The notes under the pieces were generated by a model that was given only the letters and a program-made list of their open reading frames with translations, was not told where the DNA came from and searched no databases. From Gammaproteobacteria bacterium (lineage in GTDB: Bacteria > Pseudomonadota > Gammaproteobacteria > DRLM01), in NCBI GenBank assembly GCA_023266095.1, contig JAHFRV010000001.1:64110-128109 (forward strand): DNA of 64,000 nucleotides, given 5' to 3'. A program made the translations under genes and the position numbers. Below, one piece after another: positions 34,629-50,848 of this stretch (positions are counted from its first letter, which is position 1; each line of letters begins with the position of its first letter).

Positions 34629-34994
34629 TCAAGGCAAGAGCTTTTTTTCACCATCGCTGAATACCGCGTCGATGGAGTGAAGACCGCCCGGAACAGTGAG
34701 AACCAACGTCCCTTCACCAATATTTTTTGCCGGCAGCGCTACAGCACACTTTTCCTTGATGCCACAGCGTATGAATTGCAACTTTTGGCGCCCATCGCTC
34801 AGCCCGATATTTGCCCCTGGTGAATAATGAACAGACTCCAGCATTGGACGGTAGGTTACTTTAATAGCCCCATCCTTCTCCTGCACAACAGAGAGAATTT
34901 CAACGTCTGATAGTTTGTATTGATCCATGGCTTGCCCACAAGAAGAAATGGCCATCATCGAGCTTATCACTATAATGATGGAGAGCCTGTTCAT
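34629..34994 (-). CDS. Small lipoprotein (121 aa), candidate periplasmic immunity protein
   Basis: Signal peptide + lipobox ISSCG; start overlaps the stop of the upstream candidate effector (ATGA); AT-richer. Confidence 0.5.
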   Translation of the reverse strand: MNRLSIIIVISSMMAISSCGQAMDQYKLSDVEILSVVQEKDGAIKVTYRPMLESVHYSPGANIGLSDGRQKLQFIRCGIKEKCAVALPAKNIGEGTLVLTVPGGLHSIDAVFSDGEKKLLP

Positions 34995-35488
34995 TTGGCA
35001 CCCGCCTTTTTCTTCATAAAGCTCGATGCCGGGTTTTGCTGAAGTGGCTTAGGGCTGAAGAGAGTGGTTGGCTGCTGCTTCTCAAGCAGAAGGATGTTTC
35101 TACCCAACTCACGAGGGGTTTCGAATCCGCCATAGTCGTCCGCATCGACATCCTCTCCCACCACCTCTTCGACGACTTCGCTTGCCCATGACGCGCAGGT
35201 GTTGGTGTAGCGCCAAGCGACGTTAGCCTGCATAAGCGCATTGAAGTGCCTCGCCTGCGCATCTGAAAGCCCATACTATCGGCTGGCGACGGCCTTCTGA
35301 GCAGCCTCCATTCCAATTCTGATATCCGACTTGTCGCCGTTATCAAGCACGTTCGGATGAGCGTCTGGCCAGAGCCCATAGACCGTTGTCTTTCCATCGT
35401 GGGTAATCGCTAGCCATGCATGTCCAGCCGTAATATCCTTATCGTTCCCGGCATCATTACTATGTATTCCAAAAACCATATTCCCCAT
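34991..35488 (-). pseudogene. Candidate T6SS effector (~165 codons) interrupted by an in-frame amber (TAG) codon after codon 70; His-before-Cys permuted papain-like (NlpC/P60-LRAT-type) motifs
   Basis: ORF track gives two same-frame ORFs (35276..35488 and 34991..35233) separated by one TAG; strong SD (AAAGGGGGTGAAGA) before the first ATG; motifs GHAWLAI and YTNTCASWA. Confidence 0.45.
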
Positions 35489-35528: not shown

Positions 35529-36032
35529 CTAACCCGCGCGCTCGCTAATGGTGACTTTGCCCTCTTCGAGGTCCAGTTCGGTACGCAGGTACAGGCGCAG
35601 GGGGGTCGGCTGGGCCCACAACTCGCCCTCGATTTCGAACATCAGCGCGTTGTGGCTCTGGCTACGGGGGTCGGGGGCGTGGCGTATGCGCACGCTGTTA
35701 CGCAGGATGCGCGGCTCGTAATCCCACAAGGCCTGCCGCAAAATGCGCTCTACCATCAGCGGATCGATATTCGAGACCACCCGCCCCGAGATGTCCGGCA
35801 GGCCGTAGTTGAGTACCGAATGGCTAACCAGGGGGTAGGCCTCCAGATCTTCGACGGCGCTCAAATTGATGGAATTGAACAGCCAGGAGATATCACGCAG
35901 CACCGCGGCACGGAACTTGTGCAGGGAGAGCACGCGTTTGTCGCGCGCCTCTTGGCGGGTATCGCGCTCCTCATCGGTCAGGCGATCGAGCAGCGAGGGC
36001 TGGAGGCGTTCTTTTGATGTGAGTTCGGGCAT
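35529..36032 (-). CDS. tssE: T6SS baseplate protein TssE (gp25-like)
   Basis: 167 aa with LLDRLTDE signature. Confidence 0.9.
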   Translation of the reverse strand: MPELTSKERLQPSLLDRLTDEERDTRQEARDKRVLSLHKFRAAVLRDISWLFNSINLSAVEDLEAYPLVSHSVLNYGLPDISGRVVSNIDPLMVERILRQALWDYEPRILRNSVRIRHAPDPRSQSHNALMFEIEGELWAQPTPLRLYLRTELDLEEGKVTISERAG

Positions 36033-36160
36033 GTTGATCCGCGTTGATGTTGGTTTTTTAAGTTTCGCCGCTTTGCTCCGCTGGCTGTCGAGTTGGACAA
36101 TCGCGCCTCCAGCAGCGGATACTCACCCGCATCGGTGCCGAACATGCGTTGCCCCAAACC
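35957..36160. repeat. Direct repeat copy A (~204 bp, ~85% identity to copy B) spanning tssE 5' end, intergenic spacer and a residual tagJ 3' fragment
   Basis: Aligns with 37342..37546; encodes ...GEYPLLEARL tagJ-like remnant on the minus strand. Confidence 0.8.
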
Positions 36161-36311
36161 GGAGTCGACGGATGATAAGCAAATTCCACTTTTGCCAACG
36201 GGGTTTCTACAGCTCTCAACGCCGCCATTCAACCGGAGCGTGTCTTCACGATCGGCTGCTGCATTTCCAGCTGCGTACTTACGCTGGTACTCTTCTTCCT
36301 TGGTATTTCCT

Positions 36312-36716
36312 TCACTTTTTAACTGGCCTGCTGCCGGTGCACACGTCTCCCATGTCTATGCCATTTAGCCATTGCTCAAGAACCTTAATGCGGTCTGCCG
36401 TAAAGTCTCCCAATACTTGGCATCTGCACGTTGAATAAATCGAACCATACTCAGGGCTCGGGCCGTGAGGGTAGATTAGCTCTAATTGAGCTTCTTTGTA
36501 GGCCACCCAACTCTGTTGGGATTTTCTTAGCTTGCGAATGAATTGTTGATCATGCCTGTATTTCGAGATAAGTTGTTTGTAAATCGCAACTAACTTTGCC
36601 TCCGATGTTCTCAATTGGTTGCAGGTTGATTCTTCGGCCGTCTCGCCCGCAAAGCCAAAATAAGGATAGAAAAGTAGACTTGCGAATAACACAACACCTA
36701 TGTGAAGGGGTTTCAT
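36312..36716 (-). CDS. LprI/DUF1311-family (lysozyme-inhibitor-like) secreted protein, candidate immunity for the adjacent lysozyme effector
   Basis: Signal peptide; DUF1311 pattern C..Q..W..Y...C...C; directly downstream of the GH24 gene. Confidence 0.7.
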   Translation of the reverse strand: MKPLHIGVVLFASLLFYPYFGFAGETAEESTCNQLRTSEAKLVAIYKQLISKYRHDQQFIRKLRKSQQSWVAYKEAQLELIYPHGPSPEYGSIYSTCRCQVLGDFTADRIKVLEQWLNGIDMGDVCTGSRPVKK

Positions 36717-36725
36717 GATCTGTTC

Positions 36726-37220
36726 TCACTTGTTAAATAATTCCGTCTCTCTGCTGCGGCGCCTCGTTAGGCCAGCAAGTATTTTTCCAGAAGACTTATC
36801 GTAAAGTTTCATCTTATCTGGTACTTTCGATAGATCGAGTTTTCCATCTTTACCAGTGCAAGCGGCCAAAACGTTCGCCAGATTGCCCATCCCGACGTTG
36901 TATGTAAAAGAAACGAGGGCATCAAACTGGTTTTGTGTAAGAGTGGCCCCGAGCGCCCCCACCTTTGTATTGACTGCATCTTCTGCCGTCTTTGTATCCT
37001 TCGTTAATAGGCTATCCCCTTCGTTCTGAGTAATGCCCTTCTGAAAAATTTTCTCATTTTCTTTTCCATCGCATTTTCCCGGGTGAACCAAATGCCCCCA
37101 ACCGATGGTGCAATGACCGCCTCCATCGGTATCGTAGAGGTGGGCTTGAAAAGTCTCAAAATCTTGAATTAACTTTAGCCCCGCAGAGCCGAGGGTCATG
37201 CCTAGTGAAGTATTTGCCAT
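36726..37220 (-). CDS. GH24 phage-type lysozyme (muramidase), candidate T6SS peptidoglycan-targeting effector
   Basis: No signal peptide; LKLIQDFETFQAHLYDTDGGGHCTIGWGH (catalytic Glu/Asp/Thr spacing as in T4 lysozyme) and C-terminal RRRSRETELF. Confidence 0.8.
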   Translation of the reverse strand: MANTSLGMTLGSAGLKLIQDFETFQAHLYDTDGGGHCTIGWGHLVHPGKCDGKENEKIFQKGITQNEGDSLLTKDTKTAEDAVNTKVGALGATLTQNQFDALVSFTYNVGMGNLANVLAACTGKDGKLDLSKVPDKMKLYDKSSGKILAGLTRRRSRETELFNK

Positions 37221-37341
37221 TTAATCTTCTCCTGATTGAATGAGGTTGACCCATTACTAACGAATGGTTAGATCATTTGCAGGTGAACCTAATATTTCCC
37301 GTCTACAACAGTTGCAATGGCAGTCCTTTGGCAATGGAGCC

Positions 37342-37546
37342 GGGTATCGCGCTCCTCATCGGTCAGACGGTCGAGCAGCGAGGGCTGGAGGCGCTCTTTG
37401 GATGTAAGCTCGGGCATGACATCGATCCACCTTGGTGTTTATTAAGTTTCGTCGTCCTGCTCCGCCGGGCTGTCGAGCTGGATCAGCCGCGCTTCCAGCA
37501 ACGGATACTCACCCGTATCGGTGGCAAACATACGCTGCCCCAAACC
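37342..37546. repeat. Direct repeat copy B: intact tagJ 3' end plus a duplicated 26-codon tssE 5' fragment (MPELTSKERLQPSLLDRLTDEERDTR...) that runs into the lysozyme gene leader
   Basis: Aligns with 35957..36160; plus-strand ORFs at both loci share GIALLIGQ.VEQRGLEA. Confidence 0.8.
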
Positions 37547-38254
37547 AACAACATAGTCAGGTGCCAACGCCAGCCATTCGGTGCGCCGCGCCAGGCGTAT
37601 GCGCGCATCGTCGCTGTTTTCAGAGCCGGGGTAACGGGTCGGGATGAGTGCGACGGTTTCGCCGCCATTGGCAAAAGTGATATGCGCGGGCGCCCAGACC
37701 AGATCCCGCAAGTCGGCCGGCGCTTCGATATGCACGCTGCGCAGACGTTCGAACGGCACCCAGTAGTAACGCCCGTTGATGATGGCTTCGAGCATGGGCC
37801 CCAGGCGCGGATCGGCATCGGCGAACCAGGCGAAGTCTTGACGGTCGATGGCCCCCGCTATCGCGGTGGCCTGCTCGAAGGCCTCGGCGCGCAAGGACTG
37901 CGCACGCCCATACTGCCGCGCGGCATCCGTGCTCAAGGCCTCGATCAGCAGCGCCATCCACTGCTTCGGTTTGCCGAAGATCAGCGGCGAGTGCTCTCCC
38001 GCGAACACCCCGCGCCGCAACACTTCACAGCGCAGGGCCTCACGATAAGTCGATACCATGGCCAACGTGGCGGAATCCAACTCGCCGGCGACATTCAACT
38101 GGTTGAGTGCCCGATCCCAGTCGCCCATCACGGCCAACAACTGGAACAGAAACACCCGATGCTTGGCATCGGTCGGGGCCTTGCGCACCTCGGCCTGGAC
38201 TTCGGCCAGGGCATCGGCCAGTCGGCCGTCGTGGAGACTCATTTCTGCTGACAT
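37442..38254 (-). CDS. tagJ: T6SS accessory protein TagJ (ImpE/SciE family, TPR-like)
   Basis: 270 aa; size and position (between hcp and tssE) as for H1-T6SS TagJ1; ImpE-like sequence. Confidence 0.75.
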   Translation of the reverse strand: MSAEMSLHDGRLADALAEVQAEVRKAPTDAKHRVFLFQLLAVMGDWDRALNQLNVAGELDSATLAMVSTYREALRCEVLRRGVFAGEHSPLIFGKPKQWMALLIEALSTDAARQYGRAQSLRAEAFEQATAIAGAIDRQDFAWFADADPRLGPMLEAIINGRYYWVPFERLRSVHIEAPADLRDLVWAPAHITFANGGETVALIPTRYPGSENSDDARIRLARRTEWLALAPDYVVGLGQRMFATDTGEYPLLEARLIQLDSPAEQDDET

Positions 38255-38332: not shown

Positions 38333-38797
38333 CTAATCGAACAACTCCCAAAAAACATAACTGTCCCACTGAAAGGGTGGACAGGAAGCCACTAGATCCT
38401 TGTGCTGCGATATCTCAATACTCCGCCCAATCACCCGAATCGATCGAAGATGCGTCTCACAATCCCGCGACGTGGTGGGCTGGCGCTTTGAGGATTCGAT
38501 GAGAACATAACGATAGTCAGCTACCTCAACGATTCGGAAGTTCCCCGTCATGTCCCTGTGAAAATTGCATGGCCATGGAATATGCAGGTTGTAAATTTGG
38601 GTCTTGCCATCAGCAGTAGCGGCTGCAAAACAGGCTTCCCCGCGGCCCTCCAATCGTATCGAGAACTGACCTATGTTTAGCTCATCCTCTAAGTCATTTA
38701 TTTCACCCGCCGTACCACAGGATACGACGGCTAAACTAGTAATCGCGGCCATCACCAAACGCCTATGGATTTGACTCATGGCAGTTCCCAAAACCAA
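38333..38797 (-). CDS. Lipoprotein (154 aa), candidate Tai4-like immunity protein
   Basis: Signal peptide with VVSCG lipobox; 11 bp downstream of the Tae4-like gene; AT-richer. Confidence 0.5.
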   Translation of the reverse strand: MVLGTAMSQIHRRLVMAAITSLAVVSCGTAGEINDLEDELNIGQFSIRLEGRGEACFAAATADGKTQIYNLHIPWPCNFHRDMTGNFRIVEVADYRYVLIESSKRQPTTSRDCETHLRSIRVIGRSIEISQHKDLVASCPPFQWDSYVFWELFD

Positions 38798-38808
38798 ACC
38801 TGGGAAGA

Positions 38809-39207
38809 TTAGTTTGCCGGATCAGAAAACGTTTTTGTTAATCCTCGGTTCCATAAATCGATGTGATCGCCAGTTCTCGCGCGCTCGCCTGATCGCGCAA
38901 AGCAGTCTTTGAAGAAAATCATGCCAGCCTTGCGACTTAAAGCAATTTTGGCCTTGGCTCCCTCTGCATATATCATGGGCCGACCAAGACGATTTTTCCA
39001 AAGCCAGCTGGCCAACGACTCGGCTCCCCGAGCATGGCCATGACTGCATTTTGGCTCTGAATAAGTGTTTTTATTCACTTTGATTGTCTGCTCCGCGTTG
39101 AGGGCTATGCTCATACGAATTGAGCATTGGTTCTCCCAGTTGTCGTCGCACGGAAAAGATTCTGTTGGGTAGTTTGACCACAAATTAATGAAGCTGGGTT
39201 TTGACAT
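38809..39207 (-). CDS. tae4: Tae4-family T6SS peptidoglycan amidase effector (papain-like Cys-His)
   Basis: MSKPSFINLW..., ...NQCSIRMS..., ...GDHIDLWNRG... match the Tae4 N-terminus, catalytic Cys and His motifs; start set at Met with SD spacing 9. Confidence 0.7.
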   Translation of the reverse strand: MSKPSFINLWSNYPTESFPCDDNWENQCSIRMSIALNAEQTIKVNKNTYSEPKCSHGHARGAESLASWLWKNRLGRPMIYAEGAKAKIALSRKAGMIFFKDCFARSGERARTGDHIDLWNRGLTKTFSDPAN

Positions 39208-39299
39208 GTGACTCATCCTTCCCTGGGAAGAGGGCGATTTTAGCACTCCCACAAACCGCAGGATTTCCCTGGGGAGCGGCCGCAGCGCCGCTTCATAAC

Positions 39300-39339: not shown

Positions 39340-39825
39340 TCAGAGCTTCTTGTTGGCGGAGATGTCCCACTTGAATTGCTTGGGCGCCTCGCCGGTGCCG
39401 TCGTCCTTCTGCTGAACATAGTCGACGTTGACTTCGGCGAAATTCAGCGAGACGTTCTCGGTGAGGCGGTCCTCACCGCCGCTGCCGCCGGTGGCTACCG
39501 AACTCACCATCACTTTCTTCATCACTATCTTGATGTATTCGAGCGGCCCCTTACCACCGGCCTTGCGGACCACCAGCGTGGCGTCCGGTATGTGCTCGCC
39601 GCTCGCACAATAGAGCATCAGCAGGGGCGAAGCCACGTCCACCCACTTGGTCAAGGTCAGGTCGTTGAAGTTGGCCTTGCCCGCGCCACCGCCGCCGCCG
39701 CTCTGAAAAGAACCCGACTGCGACAGCCCCCAACTCCAGGCCAATACATCGATCTCACCTTTGTGTTTGTCATCCGTCGACTCGCCCTTGATACCCGCAA
39801 CCTTGATGAACATATCTACGGCCAT
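39340..39825 (-). CDS. hcp: T6SS inner tube protein Hcp
   Basis: 161 aa MAVDMFIKVAGIKGESTDDKHKGEIDVLAWSWG... Confidence 0.95.
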   Translation of the reverse strand: MAVDMFIKVAGIKGESTDDKHKGEIDVLAWSWGLSQSGSFQSGGGGGAGKANFNDLTLTKWVDVASPLLMLYCASGEHIPDATLVVRKAGGKGPLEYIKIVMKKVMVSSVATGGSGGEDRLTENVSLNFAEVNVDYVQQKDDGTGEAPKQFKWDISANKKL

Positions 39826-50072: not shown

Positions 50073-50366
50073 CTAGGAGCGTCCGCTTGAGCGCCGGGTT
50101 AGCACTCTTGATGCACGTTTATATATAAGAATTGCCGCCATTGTTATGCATGTAACCAATATAAGCGATACCACTAGTCCAAATATTATTCCTACCGTTG
50201 CTACATCCTCGGCCGTTTTAGCAGAAGCGGCATCCGTAATCCATATTGAAAGAGATTCTGGTATTTGTGGAAATAAGTTTGGGTTGTAGTACCACGTATA
50301 CGCCAGCGTTACAGACGAAGCCAGAATCCAAGTTGCCAGAATTGACTTTTTATGCGCGGAAGTCAT
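50073..50366 (-). CDS. Small 2-TM membrane protein (97 aa), candidate immunity for the Tlde1-like effector
   Basis: Start overlaps the effector stop (ATGA); AT-rich; two hydrophobic helices. Confidence 0.45.
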   Translation of the reverse strand: MTSAHKKSILATWILASSVTLAYTWYYNPNLFPQIPESLSIWITDAASAKTAEDVATVGIIFGLVVSLILVTCITMAAILIYKRASRVLTRRSSGRS

Positions 50367-50848
50367 TTAACCACCACAGTTCCATAGGCCAATATGTCGG
50401 TGTCTTTTATCTTCATTGGCTTGCTGGACTTCAACAGTGCACGGATGTGGTTAAAGTGGCTCGGATTTTCAATGGTGATACATCCTTTGCTGATACCAAA
50501 ACCCGTCTTTGGGTGCAGTCTGAAATTTCCACGCCCGACGTGATTGCAATATGTTTTATCATCAATGCGCCCGTCATTAGCATAGAGGGAGAACCAATCC
50601 TTGTGACCCTTTATGCGATCCCATAGCGGGCCAAGAAAACCTCCGGATTGGCGATCAAGAATAAAATACGTTCCGGGAGGGATAGGTCCAAGGTCTGGAG
50701 TACAAGCAAATATTCGTTTATTCACGTAGCTCCCAAGACCAGAGAATGCGGAAAATGACATTGCTCCAATCTTGAATTGGCTCAATGGCTGGTTGTTCAG
50801 TTCAAAACTACATTGTTGCATTGGGAGAGCCTCCTTTGGTGTTGGCAA
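50363..50848 (-). CDS. tlde1: Tlde1-family (DUF2778) L,D-transpeptidase-like T6SS effector
   Basis: ...MQQCSFELNNQPLSQF...GPIPPGTYFILDRQSGG...FRLHPKTGFGISKGCITI... with the His-x(n)-S-x-G-C LDT catalytic motif; no signal peptide; AT-rich. Confidence 0.7.
   Translation of the reverse strand: MPTPKEALPMQQCSFELNNQPLSQFKIGAMSFSAFSGLGSYVNKRIFACTPDLGPIPPGTYFILDRQSGGFLGPLWDRIKGHKDWFSLYANDGRIDDKTYCNHVGRGNFRLHPKTGFGISKGCITIENPSHFNHIRALLKSSKPMKIKDTDILAYGTVVVK

Follow-up and report, generated by a model that had tools for sequence, protein, structure and literature searches.

A stand-alone GH24 lysozyme and an LprI-fold protein inserted in a type VI secretion operon: a predicted muramidase effector with its periplasmic immunity protein

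What is a gene for a phage-type lysozyme doing in the middle of a type VI secretion system (T6SS) operon, with a gene for a small secreted protein directly behind it? The question is raised by a 64,000-nucleotide stretch of DNA, hereafter the window, from a gammaproteobacterium of the DRLM01 lineage (assembly GCA_023266095.1, contig JAHFRV010000001.1, positions 64,110 to 128,109 of the forward strand; all coordinates below are counted from its first letter). An initial annotation, made from the bare sequence, had proposed that the two genes code for a T6SS-delivered muramidase and its immunity protein. Our analysis, which establishes the families and folds of the two products, an intact catalytic triad, their localisation signals, a position inside the T6SS operon, a foreign composition, an insertion scar and a conserved pairing, indicates that they very probably are a T6SS cargo muramidase of the GH24 family and a periplasmic immunity protein with the LprI fold. 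Both open reading frames (ORFs) were found where the annotation had placed them:

36726..37220, (-) strand: GH24 (Phage_lysozyme) muramidase gene; 164 amino acids, 17.6 kDa; predicted T6SS cargo effector (Pfam, PDB, AF2, Foldseek)
36312..36716, (-) strand: LprI/DUF1311-fold gene; 134 amino acids with a Sec signal peptide; predicted periplasmic immunity protein (Pfam, AF2, 3gi7)

The lysozyme gene starts with an ATG that has an AGGAGA 7 nt upstream, and the ATG of the LprI-like gene lies 9 nt past the lysozyme TGA. Pfam places the 164-residue protein in the lysozyme family and the 134-residue protein in the LprI family, as had been surmised: the former matches Phage_lysozyme (PF00959) with 98.5 bits (E=4.7e-28) over profile positions 2-125 of 125, the gathering cut-off being 22.3 bits, and the latter matches LprI (PF07007) with 46.9 bits (E=3.9e-12) over positions 18-106 of 106, the cut-off being 22 bits. 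Judged by these scores, both matches lie far beyond chance. The lysozyme domain is the only one that Pfam recovers in the 164-residue protein, which is a bare catalytic domain.

The catalytic residues of this domain, Glu22, Asp32 and Thr38 (the equivalents of E11, D20 and T26 of T4 lysozyme), are intact; in an alignment of 30 relatives, Glu22 is present in at least 90% and both Asp32 and Thr38 are invariant. The T4-lysozyme-like catalytic region with the CTIGWGH motif, which the initial annotation had recognised, is indeed present, the motif occupying residues 37-43. Its Glu-x8-Asp spacing needs correction: Glu22 is separated by x7 from Asp30 and by x9 from the invariant Asp32, such that the signature reads E-x9-D-x5-T, and the count came out one short, owing to a single inserted residue that makes the Glu-to-Asp segment longer than in the endolysin 9kbq. 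A phmmer search of all PDB chains (E<=0.01) recovered 13 chains, all of them lysozymes or endolysins and none a T6SS effector, with the nearest by sequence being the PHAb10 endolysin 9kbq (E=7e-21), 6et6, a fungal GH24 muramidase, the SpmX muramidase domain and the P22 lysozyme. The AF2 model built from 30 relatives (predicted local distance difference test, pLDDT, 93.6; predicted template-modelling score, pTM, 0.87) predicts a two-lobed T4-lysozyme-like fold, and its Foldseek matches include 9kbq, 6et6, the SpmX muramidase and the P22 and T4 lysozymes (probability 1.00; template-modelling score, TM, 0.75-0.84), with no T6SS effector chain among the top 50. As the annotation had also stated, the protein has no export signal: its N-terminus runs directly into the canonical first helix (H12-21), which stops just before Glu22, and with only ~11 residues ahead of this helix it therefore carries neither a Sec signal nor a signal-arrest-release (SAR) anchor.

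Four further residues, Cys37, His43, His46 and Cys50 (encoded at about 37071-37112 of the window), are invariant in the close clade of the lysozyme. We considered a zinc site formed by these residues, which is disfavoured: in cyanobacterial relatives, Cys37 and Cys50 are jointly swapped for Ala/Ile while the His residues stay, a pattern that a disulfide or packing pair fits better. The alignment suggests that the two cysteines may form a disulfide solely in the oxidising periplasm.

The 134-residue partner proved to be a secreted protein with the DUF1311/LprI pattern of Cys, Gln, Trp, Tyr and Cys, much as the initial annotation had it. The signal, read from the sequence, is of the Sec type (MKPLHIGVVLFASLLFYPYFGFA followed by GE), with an h-region at residues 6-23 and cleavage at about A23/G24, and such a signal is also present in all five aligned homologues. 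No lipobox was found in it, so that the protein is not a lipoprotein, unlike the LprI of Mycobacterium tuberculosis, a lysozyme inhibitor which binds and inhibits macrophage lysozymes according to Sethi 2016, as cited in T6SS papers. The pattern residues are C32, Q67, W70, Y73/Y90 and C97, with further cysteines at C99 and C126. Its AF2 model (pLDDT 88.8, with residues 1-30 at low confidence) has three long helices forming a bundle with a Cys-containing tail, a predicted DUF1311 helical-bundle fold. The sole convincing fold match in the PDB is 3gi7, the DUF1311 protein PP0307 (probability 1.00; TM 0.71 by target; root-mean-square deviation 2.5 A), at a Foldseek E-value of just 0.12; a lysozyme-LprI complex was not found in our PDB searches. 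A word-indexed homologue search retrieved only the protein itself, and the family had to be gathered by an exhaustive HMMER search, which yielded 1093 cluster representatives at E<=1e-3, only one of them above 50% identity; such fast divergence is what is expected of immunity proteins. A spanin-like role was also considered for this protein and was rejected in view of its fold, a compact DUF1311 bundle and not a coiled-coil.

How faithfully do the two genes keep company elsewhere? We ran a hidden Markov model of the immunity family on the full set of 22,088 ORFs contained in 252 fetched loci (2.7 Mb), 80 of these loci being viral. An LprI-like ORF was recovered in 18 of the 252. In each of the 18 it immediately follows the 3' end of the GH24 gene in the same orientation, with no further occurrence in the flanks; the 80 viral loci are all without it. 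The loci with the pair span Gamma- and Betaproteobacteria and Acidobacteriota, with distant versions in Nitrosomonas, Terriglobia and Blastocatellia. Scans of genome and metagenome contigs mostly gave distant GH24 genes (<=49% identity) and, from the close clade, only those of Limnobacter, the other close relatives coming solely from exact-protein look-ups; the close lysozyme homologues (56-83% identity) are from metagenomes and Limnobacter. In this clade, a signal-bearing LprI-family gene directly follows the lysozyme in five independent contexts beyond the window (loci L003-6, L087, L088/89, L090/91 and the Limnobacter loci L007/L031). The junctions show a 9-nt gap or an overlap, and the lysozyme is always better conserved than its partner (79/44, 75/46, 68/51, 67/34 and 56/30% identity for lysozyme/partner), which is usual for effector-immunity pairs. 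In L087, from another metagenome, a 78%-identical homologue pair adjoins tssM and tssA.

Some of these neighborhoods display features of their own. A Sel1/Peptidase_C14 gene directly follows the pair in L087, and in L092 (1-16462) a close lysozyme homologue sits among multiple caspase-like (Peptidase_C14) genes along with DUF4384 and CsgG genes. In Limnobacter sp. MED105 (L031, 9878-10707), the lysozyme frame is apparently truncated, with ~68 residues aligning in one ORF, and the LprI-like ORF that follows it is complete; the effector may have decayed here and its immunity gene been kept as an orphan.

In the window, the pair lies between tagJ and tssE, on the same strand as an H1-like T6SS operon that runs on the minus strand and comprises tssJ, tssK, tssL, tssM, tagF, pppA, tssA, tssB, tssC, hcp, tagJ, tssE, tssF, tssG, clpV. 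Twelve of the 13 T6SS core genes are present. The features around the pair are:

36164..37340, (-) strand: GH24-LprI cassette, comprising 5' leader, lysozyme, immunity gene and 3' tail; 1177 bp, guanine-cytosine (GC) content 0.46
37442..38254, (-) strand: tagJ (ImpE), upstream T6SS gene (Pfam PF07024, E=4.1e-47)
35529..36032, (-) strand: tssE (gp25-like baseplate), downstream T6SS gene (Pfam PF04965, E=4.3e-19)
39340..39825, (-) strand: hcp, presumed carrier of small cargo effectors (PF05638 annotation on the identical contig)
37338..37549, (-) strand: distal junction repeat, with the 3' end of the intact tagJ, the spacer and a dead tssE 5' fragment with its ATG at 37418 (tblastn, TssE fragment, 68% over 34 amino acids)
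35953..36163, (-) strand: proximal junction repeat, with a dead tagJ 3' fragment, the spacer and the 5' end of the intact tssE (tblastn, TagJ fragment, 90% over 21 amino acids)

The cassette differs sharply in composition from its surroundings, with a GC content of 0.462 against 0.62-0.64 for tagJ, tssE and tssF and about 0.62 for the T6SS core, and a search of its 120-nt leader gave no sigma-70-like promoter. It is bracketed by a direct repeat of ~210 bp of the tagJ/tssE junction (35953-36163 versus 37338-37549; 88-92% identical by pairwise alignment; repeat families D1, D2 and D6), each copy of which consists of the tagJ 3' end, the spacer and the first 78 nt of tssE. The resulting order is tagJ, dead tssE 5' fragment, lysozyme, LprI, dead tagJ 3' fragment, tssE. 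The cassette has no terminal inverted repeats, and by blastn it resembles homologous cassettes from other loci in the coding regions only, with no non-coding flank in common; mobility of a transposon or integron kind is thus without support. The arrangement appears to fit homology-driven duplicative integration better than transposition.

Taken together, these features suggest the following course of events, in which we infer that export depends on the T6SS (through Hcp), that the lysozyme is toxic in the periplasm and that the LprI-like protein inhibits it directly. The cassette would have been acquired horizontally. The lysozyme, made in the cytoplasm without a signal peptide and presumably co-transcribed with the T6SS operon, would probably be loaded into the Hcp tube, because it is a bare catalytic domain of Hcp-cargo size with neither adaptor nor marker domain. 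Fired into the periplasm of neighboring Gram-negative cells, it would cleave the bonds between N-acetylmuramic acid and N-acetylglucosamine in their peptidoglycan (MurNAc-(beta-1,4)-GlcNAc) and cause lysis. The LprI-like gene is probably translationally coupled to that of the lysozyme, given the 9-nt gap, and the Sec pathway would export its product to the producer's own periplasm, where the DUF1311/LprI three-helix bundle would bind and block lysozyme delivered by sister cells. The pair indeed combines a predicted toxin that has no signal with an immunity gene product targeted to the toxin's compartment, the periplasm, the site of peptidoglycan.

The lysozyme cassette is not the only one in this operon: five low-GC (0.45-0.51) effector-immunity bicistrons occupy five different core-gene junctions. 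The other four, all of low GC, are:

50073-50848, tssK/tssL junction: Tlde1-domain protein and 97-amino-acid membrane protein
38333-39252, hcp/tagJ junction: Tae4 amidase and signal-peptide protein
34629-35488, tssE/tssF junction: unknown effector with an in-frame TAG and a lipoprotein
30760-31491, tssG/clpV junction: Tse2-like ADP-ribosyltransferase and acidic 80-amino-acid protein

The TssC of the window shares 81-82% identity with proteins from uncultured Gammaproteobacteria and from endosymbionts of tubeworms. In three related clusters at this level of identity (81-82%; L253, L254 and L255), the same core genes abut or overlap, tagJ standing directly against tssE, with zero cargo, which identifies the cassettes as insertions into an operon that was once compact. 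The duplication of the junction is not seen at the other four cassettes. At the tssE/tssF junction, the effector frame of 165 codons (34991-35488, (-) strand) is broken by a single in-frame TAG (35276-35278) into ORFs of 70 and 80 amino acids and is followed by a lipoprotein of 121 amino acids (34629-34994); neither as it stands nor with the TAG read through does this frame match anything in Pfam, NCBIfam or the PDB, and it may be a pseudogenised novel effector whose immunity gene has been retained. Elsewhere in the operon, a Fha gene is not seen between tssJ and the flanking genes, and a 174-amino-acid ORF without a family match comes next after clpV (27269-27793). Putting these strands together, we raise a broader reading, tentatively and with considerable doubt: the GH24-LprI cassette and its four neighbors may record a general, unrecognised mode of T6SS arsenal exchange, in which small effector-immunity bicistrons are put into core-gene junctions by homology-driven duplicative recombination, with the 210-bp repeat as its scar; the GH24-LprI pair would be a toxin-immunity unit that crosses phyla (Gamma- and Betaproteobacteria, Acidobacteriota), and its LprI partner would show that DUF1311 ancestrally served to inhibit the GH24 muramidases of bacteria.

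Several observations weigh against a T6SS cargo effector with its immunity protein. Around most of the homologous pairs (L003-6, L088/89 and L090/91), the nearest 8-10 kb is free of T6SS genes, which means that the module has no intrinsic bond to T6SS clusters; the close homologue in L092 has no LprI neighbor; and the Cys37/Cys50 subfamily of GH24 proteins, which occurs without an LprI neighbor in genomes of Actinomycetota, Chloroflexota and Bacteroidota (loci L008-L029), thus extends to Actinomycetota and Chloroflexota, which have no T6SS. The scanned ORFs of the window include neither a vgrG nor a PAAR gene, and no MIX, FIX, WHIX, PAAR, VgrG fusion, DUF4123 or similar marker or adaptor was found in the lysozyme (by Pfam) or the cassette, a delivery marker or adaptor not being required for cargo of the Hcp lumen.

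One alternative is that the pair constitutes a T6SS-independent, bacteriocin-like toxin-immunity module that landed by chance in the T6SS operon, with the lysozyme being freed by another route or by lysis and the LprI-like protein shielding the kin. The ordinary chromosomal surroundings of most homologous pairs, the distant pairs of Nitrosomonas, Terriglobia and Blastocatellia, and the lack of a T6SS targeting motif detectable by Pfam in the lysozyme all speak for it. However, an orphan location is normal for Hcp-cargo effectors, and the cassette lies in the same orientation between two essential T6SS genes with no promoter of its own detected. Moreover, it is accompanied by four other cassettes, three of them from recognised T6SS effector families (Tae4, Tlde1 and Tse2), and a lysozyme lacking a signal has no other evident way into the periplasm. 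We consider a T6SS-independent module unlikely.

A different proposal accepts the lysozyme and questions the dedication of its partner, which would serve as a general defence against exogenous lysozymes of a host or competitor. It can appeal to the reported inhibition of macrophage lysozymes by the M. tuberculosis protein (Sethi 2016, as cited in T6SS papers) and to the orphan LprI genes that exist in Pantoea hcp islands (PMC9796082). We rate it as very unlikely in the face of the 18 of 18 loci in which the LprI-like ORF directly follows a GH24 gene, its absence from the rest of the 2.7 Mb of flanks, and the tight or overlapping junctions.

The pair might, alternatively, be what remains of a phage or tailocin lysis module, namely an endolysin with an accessory lysis or anti-lysis protein, as the closest solved structures and named families are endolysins of phages or gene transfer agents (GTAs) and holin-dependent endolysins have the same architecture, a bare globular GH24 domain that lacks a signal. 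This is highly improbable: no phage, holin or spanin genes were found around the pair, which has T6SS genes on both flanks; the best of 593 viral lysozyme relatives, from 2.9 million viral contigs, is just 41-43% identical; the viral loci are devoid of the LprI neighbor; and the partner is a compact bundle instead of a coiled-coil spanin. Finally, a housekeeping hydrolase that opens the producer's own wall for T6SS assembly in the manner of TagX or MltE, with LprI as its regulator, would suit a gene inside a T6SS structural operon, and dedicated wall-remodelling enzymes are known for some T6SSs, but it is exceedingly unlikely for an enzyme that lacks the signal peptide or membrane anchor needed to enter the producer's periplasm, is missing from the three related clusters, bears a foreign GC content and an insertion scar, and belongs to a mobile pair found elsewhere far from T6SS genes.

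If the pair is indeed a T6SS cargo muramidase with its LprI-fold immunity protein, it would represent a minimal T6SS muramidase effector, a bare GH24 domain of 164 residues small enough for Hcp loading, furnished with a cognate DUF1311 inhibitor. As a linked and highly conserved pair, it would offer a handy system to learn how the widespread DUF1311 fold blocks lysozyme, and the locus would illustrate how foreign effector cassettes are wedged between essential T6SS genes.

Where does such a pair stand among known systems? The glycoside hydrolases classically associated with H1-type T6SSs are Tge1 (Tse3) and Tge2, which in Whitney's work of 2013 reportedly act on peptidoglycan in the periplasm and are countered by the periplasmic immunity proteins Tgi1 and Tgi2. 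To our knowledge, the Tgi immunity proteins are not DUF1311 proteins. Structures of Tse3 and Tge2 are present in the PDB, and by phmmer the window lysozyme has no detectable sequence similarity to either; with no T6SS glycoside hydrolase effector among its PDB matches, the initial annotation appears to have been right to set GH24 apart from the Tge families. The globular GH24 endolysins (PHAb10, 9kbq; the AB5075 prophage muramidase, 6et6; P22 lysozyme, 2anv) share fold, size and catalytic triad with the window lysozyme at 36-37% identity, whereas the latter differs in its non-phage context, its clade-specific Cys37/Cys50 and His46, and its dedicated LprI partner. Full-text literature searches that combined T6SS with GH24 or Phage_lysozyme brought up no stand-alone GH24 effector that has been characterised.

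Pairs of lysozyme-like effectors with LprI or DUF1311 proteins, in contrast, are on record, and DUF1311 proteins do recur as T6SS immunity proteins, as the initial annotation had held. In Pantoea, predicted LprI-domain immunity genes lie beside T6SS effectors with “lysozyme-like” and “endolysin” domains in hcp islands (Carobbi 2022, PMC9796082), and LprI genes adjoin the lysozyme-like effectors Pme and Ame, the former being pesticin-like by HHpred to PDB 4AQN (bioRxiv 10.1101/2023.03.17.533219). The Pantoea agglomerans pair Psi15/Pse15 joins LprI immunity to a pesticin-type muramidase and, placed in a surrogate Pantoea strain, gave killing of competitors that depended on T6SS1 (bioRxiv 10.64898/2026.08.01.741415). 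Pse15/Psi15 and Pme resemble the window pair in that a muramidase effector is followed by a signal-peptide LprI-domain gene, the Pantoea pairs being located in hcp islands or at variable hotspots; the two Pantoea effectors are larger proteins that carry an N-terminal region before a C-terminal pesticin domain, whereas the window protein is a bare GH24 domain of 164 residues, with no chain named pesticin among its PDB sequence matches. In Salmonella Dublin, SED_RS06235/SED_RS06230 couples an effector to DUF1311/LprI (Amaya 2022, PMC8867033), and in the Etse4/Etsi4 pair of enterohaemorrhagic Escherichia coli, periplasmic toxicity is rescued by the DUF1311 protein (PMC12981562). Both are, like the window pair, bicistrons of a peptidoglycan-targeting effector and a Sec-exported DUF1311/LprI immunity protein, but their effector is a 290-amino-acid protein with LysM and a transglycosylase-like domain, and not a GH24 lysozyme. 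WHIX effectors with lysozyme-type C-termini are likewise predicted to have LprI immunity (Fridman 2025, PMC12135965). By description, these and the Pantoea hcp-island effectors parallel the window pair in having a toxin domain of the lysozyme superfamily followed by an LprI-domain immunity protein, as small cargo genes by hcp; they differ in genus and in the delivery determinant, a WHIX domain or an hcp island.

Thus, the core reading of the initial annotation, a T6SS GH24 muramidase with an LprI-fold immunity protein, is backed by every computational test that we ran, while its suggestion of a less-described class of muramidase effector overstated the novelty, as lysozyme-like or pesticin-type effectors with LprI/DUF1311 partners are already in PMC9796082, PMC8867033, PMC12135965, PMC12981562 and bioRxiv 10.64898/2026.08.01.741415. 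With the combination of a lysozyme-type effector and LprI immunity already established, our result extends the known catalogue and leaves the picture unchanged: the principle itself is known, and what is new here is a predicted toxin made up of a GH24 domain alone, together with an operon that is studded with cassettes and marked by a duplicated junction.

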